The notes below the pieces were generated by a model, which was not told the origin of the DNA, ran no database searches, and worked only from the letters and a program-made list of their open reading frames with translations. Positions 336 through 49,590 of a DNA stretch of 64,000 nucleotides are shown here, piece after piece. Location: NCBI RefSeq assembly GCF_054482525.1, contig NZ_CM137006.1; one strand, 5' to 3'. The position numbers and the translations under genes are program-made. Position 1 is the first letter of the stretch, and the number at the start of each line of letters is the position of its first letter.

Positions 336-1424
336 TCAACCACCTGCTTTCATTACCCATTCAGAGATAAATTTATTACCCGGAACTGGCGGGGAGTACA
401 AATAGCCCTGTAAAAAGTGAACGCCTTTGCCGATCATTAAATCCGCCTGCTCCTGGGTTTCTACCCCTTCCGCCACGATACTCAGACCAGGCTTACGCGC
501 CAGTTCGACAATATTGTCCACAATATGACCGGATATTTCGTCCACGCTCGCCATTTGCACAAATGACTTATCGATCTTAATAAAATCGACCGGGAACGCC
601 TGCAAGTAACGATAGGTCGCATAACCCGTACCAAAGTCATCCAGCGCAAAGGTAATGTTGTGCTGATGAAGGCTGTCAAATATCGCTCTGGCTTCTGGCG
701 TTACCGGAATAGGGTTACGTTCCGTTAGCTCGAGAACCAGTTTGATTTTATCGTTACCTAATTTCTTAACCAGGTTCAGACACTCTTTTTCAAATCCCGC
801 AGCCAAAAAACAACCCGCCGAGACGTTGATGCCAATATGGAAATTGTCCGGCAGCAAATGTTTTACCGGCATCAGAATATCCGCAGTCTGTTTCATCAAC
901 TGGCGAGTCATTATGACGATAAGACCAGATGACTCCGCCAGAGGAATAAACTGATCCGGTGGGATAATTCCCGTTTGTGGATGTTCCCAGCGGACAAGCA
1001 CCTCACAGCCCGTCAGTACCCCAGTCTGCGCGCAGAAAACCGGTTGGATCCACGGTTTAAACTCATGGTTTTCCAACGCCAGACTGATGGCTTCAGGCGT
1101 GACGATATGGTGATAGTGATTATCATTAATATATTTGTGACTATTATTACCCGTGGCGGATATGATCTCCGGATTGTACTGAAAGAAAATATCCCGCCAG
1201 AAAGTAATATCACTCTGAATCCCCAGTTTCTCAAAGAGCTGTTTCTTTTGATGTGAAATGGTCTTTGCACTGCGATTTCTGTACTGTGATATTTCTGTTA
1301 CAGACATTCCCTGCATCAGCAGCTTGAGTAGCAGTCGTTCTTTCTCGGATACGCTACCAGGCAATGACAAATGAACCGTTGTACCGAACTCTTGCAGAAA
1401 AACACGAAAATCACATGAATTCAT
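336..1424 (-). CDS. pdeL: c-di-GMP phosphodiesterase PdeL (LuxR-type HTH + EAL domain)
   Basis: 362-aa product starting MNSCDFRVFLQEF, with an EAL-domain body and N-terminal LuxR HTH; the track ORF has 2 extra N-terminal codons. Confidence 0.93.
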   Translation of the reverse strand: MNSCDFRVFLQEFGTTVHLSLPGSVSEKERLLLKLLMQGMSVTEISQYRNRSAKTISHQKKQLFEKLGIQSDITFWRDIFFQYNPEIISATGNNSHKYINDNHYHHIVTPEAISLALENHEFKPWIQPVFCAQTGVLTGCEVLVRWEHPQTGIIPPDQFIPLAESSGLIVIMTRQLMKQTADILMPVKHLLPDNFHIGINVSAGCFLAAGFEKECLNLVKKLGNDKIKLVLELTERNPIPVTPEARAIFDSLHQHNITFALDDFGTGYATYRYLQAFPVDFIKIDKSFVQMASVDEISGHIVDNIVELARKPGLSIVAEGVETQEQADLMIGKGVHFLQGYLYSPPVPGNKFISEWVMKAGG

Positions 1425-15119: not shown

Positions 15120-15227
15120 ACTCAAAATCAGACGCCAGGACAAATATTCTGGCGTCTCAGAGAAAAGAATCTTATTAATTCCCTGTTATTATATAACTTC
15201 TTAATCACTTCATTGATGGTATTTTAT

Positions 15228-29998: not shown

Positions 29999-30100
29999 AT
30001 GAAAGAGAATAAAGTACAGCAAATCAGTCATAAACTGATTAATATCGTTGTTTTTATCGCAATTGTAGAATACGCCTATTTATTTCTCCATTTCTATTAA
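29999..30100 (+). CDS. ykgR: Small membrane protein YkgR (33 aa)
   Basis: ATG AAA GAG AAT... encodes MKENKVQQISHKLINIVVFIAIVEYAYLFLHFY; too short for the ORF track. Confidence 0.75.
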   Translation: MKENKVQQISHKLINIVVFIAIVEYAYLFLHFY

Positions 30101-30420
30101 TAACGGCAGTAAACTGTTCACTTCAGTGATATTTAAAATATGCATCCTCTCCCTTTTTGTAAGTAATTATTATATCCGTGGGAGAGGAATACACGCTGTC
30201 AGGTAATCAATCATACTGCGATAAATCATCGGCCAGTAAAGTGGAGATAACCTCCATTCTCGAAAAAGCGAAACTATCATCAATCACTCATCCAGGCGTT
30301 TATGGGAGCGTCGCCAACGGCTGCTAACAATGCCAGACTTCCCCGTTGGGGAAATTCCACATACCACAAATAGTCACAGGGATTGGGTGTTGAAATGATC
30401 CGGATGAGCATGTATCTTTA

Positions 30421-30443
30421 TGGTTATGTTATAACATAACAGG
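30421..30443. promoter_or_regulatory. Zur box upstream of ykgM-ykgO
   Basis: TGGTTATGTTATAACATAACAGG contains the palindrome ATGTTATAACAT, abutting the ykgM RBS. Confidence 0.65.
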
Positions 30444-30451
30444 TAAAAATG

Positions 30452-30715
30452 ATGAAACCCAATATCCATCCTGAGTATCGTACTGTGGTGTTCCATGACA
30501 CCAGTGTTGATGAGTACTTTAAAATCGGCTCGACTATCAAAACAGACCGTGAGATTGAGCTGGATGGCGTAACGTATCCGTACGTGACAATTGATGTCTC
30601 TTCGAAATCGCACCCGTTCTATACAGGGAAGCTGAGAACAGTAGCATCAGAAGGAAATGTTGCACGGTTCACCCAACGTTTTGGTCGTTTTGTTAGCACG
30701 AAAAAGGGGGCGTGA
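30452..30715 (+). CDS. ykgM: Ribosomal protein L31 type B (zinc-independent paralog)
   Basis: 87 aa starting [18 protein letters not shown]; lacks the CxxC zinc ribbon. Confidence 0.92.
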
Positions 30716-30855
30716 TGAAAGTCCTTAACTCTCTGCGTACCGCAAAAGAACGCCATCCAGACTGTCAGATTGTGAAGCGAAAAGGACGGCTATATGTGAT
30801 TTGTAAATCTAATCCACGTTTTAAGGCCGTTCAGGGTCGTAAGAAAAAACGTTGA
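30715..30855 (+). CDS. ykgO: Ribosomal protein L36 paralog (zinc-independent)
   Basis: 46-aa [49 protein letters not shown]; ATGA overlap with the ykgM stop. Confidence 0.88.
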
Positions 30856-30905
30856 TTCAAAATTCGACGGATTAATGATATTTGTCTGATTAATAATCAG
30901 ACCTG

Positions 30906-30946
30906 ATTAATGTTGGTGTATTTATTACACCAGCATTAATTTTCTT
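30906..30946 (+). terminator. Rho-independent terminator of ykgM-ykgO
   Basis: 15-bp stem ATTAATGTTGGTGTA / TACACCAGCATTAAT followed by TTTCTT. Confidence 0.65.
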
Positions 30947-31869
30947 GGGGATGTATCTTCCTGTTCATTTAAGGTCAACTGCCTGACGTTTCTCTCCGAA
31001 TATTCCATTATATTAATGTTGACTTGTTAACCAGGTGCGCCCTGTATGCTGGCATCAACTCTCTTTTAGACTGAACACGCCACTCAGTTTCCTCCCTTTG
31101 CGACGCAGCCTGCATTTACACTCAAACGGTTAAGATGATAAATGTGGTAAATCTGTTGGTACTGACATAAAAACGTTTACGTCACAGGAACGGCCTGATC
31201 CACCGGTAACCCCATCGCCGACGTTCGAGTGCCAGTTAGAGTAACGCGCACAGATGACTGAATGCAGTGCCCTGGCAAAGAGGCCATCGTTCCTGTGACA
31301 ACTGGCAGTCTTCGTTTAACTTCACTTAATTTGGCTCTTAGGGGGCTTACCGGACAGATGACGTACTTACACCTGTTTAATTTTTCATCACTTATTGGGA
31401 TGAACACCCATAACCATTTTGTGCGGCATGTTAATCCATTAAAACACCTTACTGATTGGCAAATCATCTTTAATTATGACTCATGATAGTTTTATATTCT
31501 ATTTCTTATCATTTAAACTTGTTTTTTTACTAGTCCATCACACAACACATTAAGACTATTCCTAACACCTCAGGGCAAAGTTCCTGGCTAATATAAAATG
31601 CAAGTAAGAATTGAACGTTATATTGCCAATAACCTTATGAAACTGAATGTCTTTTTCTTCTTATCAAAAAAGCAATATTTTCATTTTTTGTAAATATTGA
31701 CTTAACCATGGAATTCCTTTTCTGTTCACATATTGACACTCATCAGGAAAAAAACATAAATTTAAACCTAATCGAAATAATTAAAACTTAATCTCGTTTA
31801 ACCTATATTGATATGTGCTACGTATCTTATTTACTTCCGATTTACTAAAGAAACTGAATGTACCTGTAA

Positions 31870-49316: not shown

Positions 49317-49590
49317 ATGATGAAAACTGATCATTATCGTTGTTTTTGTTGCAATAGTAGAATACGCGTATTTATTCCTCCATCTCTATTAATAACGGCA
49401 ATAAACTGTTCACTTCACTGATATTTAAAATATGTATCCTTTTCAAGCTGTTCAGCGGCGTAAGAAAAAGCATTAATTATGAATTCGACGATTTAACCAT
49501 TTCAGTCTGATTGGTAATCATCTGTGATTAATGCTGGTCTATTGATTACGCCAGCATTAACCGCTTAGGGATGTATTCTTCCTGTTCATA
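49317..49590 (+). repeat. Degenerate second copy of the ykgR-(ykgM-ykgO) locus: frameshifted ykgR paralog fused to the 3' end of an rpmJ2-like gene plus its terminator
   Basis: 49327-49441 matches 30040-30150 (ykgR 3' part and downstream) and 49441-49590 matches 30824-30966 (ykgO 3' end and terminator), about 85-90 percent identity by eye, same orientation. Confidence 0.7.

Follow-up and report, generated by a model that had tools for sequence, protein, structure and literature searches.

The sequence just upstream of ykgM raises the question of whether its A+T-rich inverted repeat is the operator through which Zur, the zinc uptake regulator and a Fur-family repressor, controls the ykgM-ykgO operon. 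The window analyzed here, 64,000 nucleotides in length, corresponds to the chromosome of E. coli strain PCN033 (NZ_CP006632.1), to which it is 100% identical in reverse complement. A first-pass annotation made from the letters alone had proposed a Zur box at 30421-30443, directly upstream of genes for zinc-independent L31 and L36 paralogues. We conclude that the 18 bp at 30423-30440 are the Zur operator of ykgM-ykgO, with a probability of roughly 0.97, and no evidence contradicts this reading. The evidence gathered here consists of the sequence itself, its identity to K-12 DNA that is bound by Zur, a weight matrix score, conservation, promoter hexamers and the presence of a zur gene. The site is not new: the ykgMO operator is a known, textbook Zur site with derepression under zinc starvation as its established function, and its prediction in E. 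coli K-12 is said to go back to Panina et al. in 2003.

The ykgM-ykgO operon and its promoter

The two genes of the operon lie on the plus strand and meet at a single shared position. ykgM (30452-30715; RefSeq WP_000803998.1) encodes an 87-residue type B, zinc-independent ribosomal protein L31 that contains no cysteine and scores 122.9 bits against the NCBIfam model for type B L31 (NF002462; cutoff 86). ykgO (30715-30855; RefSeq WP_000866436.1) encodes a 46-residue type B ribosomal protein L36, which scores 91 bits against its own model (NF002021; cutoff 70) and has only two cysteines. The zinc-binding proteins RpmE and RpmJ have four ligands each. The description of the operon as encoding zinc-independent L31/L36 paralogues was therefore accurate, and both products are identical to the K-12 proteins. 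The repressor gene is also present in the PCN033 genome, with zur (WP_001295691.1) found at 4538171-4538686 of NZ_CP006632.1.

The operon probably ends at an intrinsic terminator at 30905-30948 on the plus strand, which consists of an A+T-rich 16-bp stem (30905-30941) followed by UUUCUU. This stem is the second of two hairpins 3' of ykgO. The predicted fold of 30856-30960 has a free energy of -31.2 kcal/mol (z -4.7), and none of 200 shuffled sequences was as stable. A G+C-biased consensus terminator scan called no terminator, missing the A+T-rich hairpin 3' of ykgO. An Rfam scan of 30100-31100 identified no RNA family, its lone match (E 0.83) falling far under the gathering score. On the opposite strand, the end of ykgL (~30925-31115) overlaps the terminator hairpin. 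The PCN033 annotation lists ykgL as a pseudogene with a frameshift; K-12 and most E. coli have an intact gene.

A promoter scan, the published literature and conservation all place the ykgMO promoter at the same two plus-strand hexamers, TTGAAA (-35; 30390-30395) and TATCTT (-10; 30413-30418). TTGAAA-17-TATCTT is the sole sigma-70-like match in 30100-31100, and a genomic SELEX study with RpoD holoenzyme tabulates the same pair for ykgMO (Shimada et al. 2014, PMC3946193). The operator core starts 4 bp downstream of the -10 hexamer. Transcription would then start at about 30425-30428, and the operator would cover the start site and the first ~15 nt of the leader. No experimental mapping of the ykgM start site in E. 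coli turned up in the literature searched, so the position of the operator relative to +1 is given here as the hexamers predict it.

We also considered and rejected an alternative promoter whose extended -10 would be TGTTATAAC, within the box itself. Conservation falls on TTG and TA in the upstream hexamers, it is the upstream pair that has been published, and a start from the alternative would give a leader that we estimate at just ~8-10 nt.

The first-pass annotation had also described the palindrome as overlapping the ribosome-binding region of ykgM. Reading the sequence places the Shine-Dalgarno motif AGGT at 30441-30444 on the plus strand. Its spacing to the annotated ATG (30452) is 7 nt, and to a second, in-frame ATG (30449) just 4 nt. 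In an alignment of upstream regions, GAGG- or AGG-like purine runs are found near this position in many orthologues. The palindrome ends at 30440, and the share of the Shine-Dalgarno motif in the 23-mer 30421-30443 is the final AGG (30441-30443) only. The overlap is thus real for these three nucleotides, but the one that matters functionally involves the promoter and the start-site region directly after the -10 hexamer. Since Zur binds duplex DNA, the adjacency of operator and Shine-Dalgarno motif has no known role in translation.

Operator sequence and weight matrix scans

The sequence at 30421-30443 is TGGTTATGTTATAACATAACAGG, exactly as first reported. The 12-bp palindrome ATGTTATAACAT named within it is present at 30426-30437, but this is the middle part of a longer one. 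The true palindrome is a perfect 18-bp repeat, GTTATGTTA|TAACATAAC, which occupies 30423-30440 with no spacer between its arms (like the matrix span and the probe core described below, it is given without a strand). It can be read as two overlapping GTTAT-N3-ATAAC units, at 30423-30435 and 30428-30440, which are offset by 5 bp. The site is therefore even-centered (9-0-9).

Not every property of this sequence is informative at the scale of the window. A perfect palindrome of at least 18 bp was present in ~30% of Markov-1 simulations of the 64-kb window, so length by itself does not make the palindrome significant at this scale. The core also fits the 18-bp skeleton RxxxYRxxR*YxxYRxxxY (Gilston et al. 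2014) exactly, but the window holds 227 matches to this purine/pyrimidine pattern compared to 258 expected, so the skeleton by itself is non-specific. The GTTAT-N3-ATAAC unit is a different matter, with three occurrences in 64 kb compared to 0.06 expected, two of them at the ykgM operator.

The third unit, GTTATTATATAAC, lies at 15185-15197 (23-mer 15180-15202) between rclA and rclB, with the rclB start (15228) ~30 bp further on. Its flanks are unmatched and the Zur matrix gives it just 9.2 bits, which is under the chance maximum. It may be a coincidence or a weak site that takes a single Zur dimer.

A symmetric 23-bp weight matrix was built only from the znuA/C, zinT and pliG operators, as taken from the K-12 genome sequence, and the ykgM sites were left out. 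The two best matches in the 64-kb window were both at the ykgM site, at 30423-30445 (19.4 bits) and 30418-30440 (17.6 bits), with a joint span of 30418-30445; the third-best match scored 10.8 bits. Across 200 shuffled or simulated windows, the maximum score had a mean of 13.0 (sd 1.75) and a largest value of 17.7, so none reached 19.4. The scan with a Zur matrix, named from the start as the way to check the box, was therefore positive. With leave-one-out matrices, the ykgM site scored 15.5-20.1 bits, compared to 18.7-24.5 bits for the held-out known sites. It is ~3-4 bits under the other operators, yet well within the range of real sites.

Comparisons with consensus sequences gave the same moderate fit. 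The ykgM site has 6/22 mismatches to the 23-mer consensus GAAATGTTATANTATAACATTTC, and a search of the 64-kb window for the 19-bp consensus AATGTTATAWTATAACATT with up to 3 mismatches returned no match, since the ykgM site, counted by hand, has 4/19. The cause lies in the geometry of the sites. The znuA/znuC, zinT and pliG operators are odd-centered (11-1-11) and have 2-4 mismatches to GAAATGTTATANTATAACATTTC, whereas the ykgM site is even-centered. The half-site words TGTTATA and TATAACA and the RNNNY-N3-RNNNY layout are common to all, and each operator sits in a short region directly upstream of the genes that it regulates. The ykgM site also differs from the other three in its two perfect GTTAT-N3-ATAAC units and in its affinity, reported as the highest.

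This difference matters for anyone who scans genomes, since classical consensus matrices rank the highest-affinity operator below the weaker znuA/C site. When the threshold has been set from the 11-1-11 consensus, the ykgM operator, which is even-centered and scores low by that standard, can be under-called. A poor score relative to known Zur sites had been proposed as grounds for refuting the box. As the ykgM operator is the tightest in E. coli despite its moderate consensus fit, a modest matrix score is no valid refutation.

Conservation upstream of ykgM

Conservation was examined in 80 loci chosen solely by YkgM protein similarity (67-95% identity) from a collection with one genome per species and ~100,000 species. 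These loci span Escherichia, Citrobacter, Kluyvera, Enterobacter, Klebsiella, Salmonella, Serratia, Photorhabdus, Brenneria, Vibrio and Pseudoalteromonas. In all 80, the top matrix match of the whole ~1.85-kb locus is upstream of ykgM, with 8-31 bp between its end and the start codon. The GTTAT-N3-ATAAC unit is found in the 60 bp that precede the start in 66/80 loci and is absent from the other 143 kb of these loci.

When 81 distinct upstream regions are aligned, the box stands out as the most conserved intergenic block. Columns 30423-30435 are conserved at 91-100% and columns 30436-30441 at 64-86%, compared to ~20-50% for most other intergenic columns. Besides the box and the start codon, the only strongly conserved positions are the TTG at 30390-30392 (98-100%) and the TA at 30413-30414 (86% and 100%). 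The outer arm of the palindrome is degenerate in many genera, reading AAAAC in Enterobacter, for example.

Of 5426 complete E. coli genomes, 5057 contain the 70-bp promoter region, and the variants inspected carry changes at 30420-30422, outside the core. The divergent strain OkiPb01713, which belongs to a rare lineage, has the operator ACTATGTTATAACGTAAC, aligned to 30421-30440. Its three core changes all preserve the purine/pyrimidine skeleton described by Gilston et al. The ykgM-ykgO region, including the 70-bp promoter/operator, was also seen at 12-13 plasmid locations among complete E. coli assemblies, and a few E. coli genomes have two copies of the region.

Zur binding, repression and other readings

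The DNA of the window is the same as the DNA on which Zur binding has been studied. Positions 30387-30456, from the -35 hexamer to the start codon, are identical to the K-12 ykgMO (L31p) operator region. The differences from K-12 are the strain itself and some flanking polymorphisms outside this interval. The stretch at 30407-30453 is an exact match to the 47-nt genomic core, excluding the 2-nt clamps, of the Cy5-L31P gel-shift probe listed in supplementary file 3 of Gilston et al. (2014, PMC4219657).

Affinity and repression are taken from published work, and these figures belong to the identical K-12 sequence rather than to PCN033. By EMSA, the L31p operator gave an apparent Kd of 0.025e-18 M^2, the lowest among the four E. 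coli operators measured, and it was repressed 560-fold in vivo when wild type was compared to delta-zur (Gilston et al. 2014, PMC4219657). In the same study, Zur protected ~30 bp of the znuABC, L31p and zinT operators, and two Zur dimers were described that bind the operator from opposite faces, each reading RNNNY-N3-RNNNY. A ykgM-lacZ fusion showed negligible activity in a zur+ strain and very high activity after zur::kan transduction, and the zinc chelator TPEN raised its expression almost 1000-fold (Aseev et al. 2020, PMC7297116). The 560-fold repression and the almost 1000-fold induction bear out the proposed derepression of ykgM-ykgO under zinc starvation. A related box is known in Yersinia pestis, where ykgM-rpmJ2 is Zur-repressed and its Zur box has been located by DNase I footprinting (Li et al. 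2009, PMC2706843). That box lies upstream of the orthologous operon, at much the same distance from the start codon (-34 to -16, compared to -29 to -12 here). Its sequence, GATGTTACATTATAACATA, is 9-1-9 and is reported to overlap the -10, whereas the E. coli core begins 4 bp past it.

These data suggest how the switch would work. With sufficient zinc, two Zn-loaded Zur dimers would occupy the two overlapping GTTAT-N3-ATAAC units from opposite faces of the duplex. Since the operator begins 4 bp after the -10 hexamer and covers the predicted start, the bound (Zur2)2 complex would occlude the start-site region and block initiation by RNA polymerase. When zinc is scarce, Zur would leave the DNA and transcription of the operon would rise several-hundred-fold, providing L31/L36 paralogues, described as cysteine-free, that would replace the zinc-binding RpmE and RpmJ. 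The two perfect units fit the dimer-of-dimers model. They may also be a simple reason why this operator is bound most tightly despite its rank below znuA/C with classical matrices, and the order in which Gilston et al. (2014, PMC4219657) rank palindromes is in line with this.

Could the palindrome instead be a chance A+T-rich intergenic feature with no regulatory role? The frequency of perfect palindromes of this length in simulated windows and the chance-level count of the purine/pyrimidine skeleton would allow it. Chance does not, however, predict a block conserved at 91-100% among neighboring columns at mostly ~20-50%, or a best matrix match that keeps a fixed spacing to the start codon in 80/80 loci. 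Together with the binding and repression published for the identical sequence, this conservation rules the chance reading out, and we give it almost no weight. Control by another Fur-family regulator, such as Fur itself, with iron rather than zinc as the signal, is only marginally more credible. Fur and Zur are homologous proteins, and the boxes of both are A+T-rich inverted repeats. Yet the best match of the ykgM box to the 19-bp Fur consensus has 9/19 mismatches, and its central TATA is contacted by Zur Tyr45, a feature described as missing from the Fur box (Gilston et al. 2014, PMC4219657). Repression is also lost in a zur deletion (PMC4219657) and under TPEN (PMC7297116). We rejected a Fur box because of these mismatches and the zur and TPEN genetics.

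A third reading would add to the Zur operator rather than replace it. The RNA copy of the operator could form a hairpin at the 5' end of the ykgMO mRNA that tunes stability or translation after Zur has left. Of the readings considered, this one comes nearest to the stress that the first-pass annotation laid on the ribosome-binding region. With a start near 30425, most of the palindrome would be in the 5' UTR, where 30423-30440 is predicted to form a stem of 7 bp capped by a 4-nt loop (centroid -6.1 kcal/mol), and the 18-bp palindrome stops 1 nt before the AGG of the Shine-Dalgarno motif. This fold is nevertheless no better than those of shuffled sequences (z -1.14; 22/200 as stable), it does not sequester the Shine-Dalgarno motif, and the outer arm of the palindrome is degenerate in many genera. 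The DNA palindromy needed for Zur accounts fully for the symmetry. Because Zur binding alone demands a palindrome, covariation and sequence comparison cannot separate the RNA reading from the DNA reading. We consider an additional RNA role unlikely, though less so than either chance or Fur.

Read as a Zur operator, the site is part of a switch that lets E. coli swap zinc-binding L31/L36 for zinc-free paralogues when it is starved of zinc, as under host nutritional immunity. The ykgMO promoter is among the most tightly regulated known in E. coli. For PCN033, a swine extraintestinal pathogenic strain, the analysis confirms that the standard circuit is present and intact, and it implies nothing beyond that.

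Two other features of the window were noted. A Fur-like sequence, ATTAATGATAATCACTATC, on the minus strand at 1112-1130 has 3 mismatches to the 19-bp Fur consensus, and such a match was found in 0/100 shuffles; it lies inside the coding sequence of pdeL (~336-1424, minus strand, in the PCN033 annotation). The small membrane protein gene ykgR is intact at 29999-30100, and a partial second ykgR that lacks its N-terminus is located at ~49324-49392, near an integrase remnant beside tRNA-Thr.
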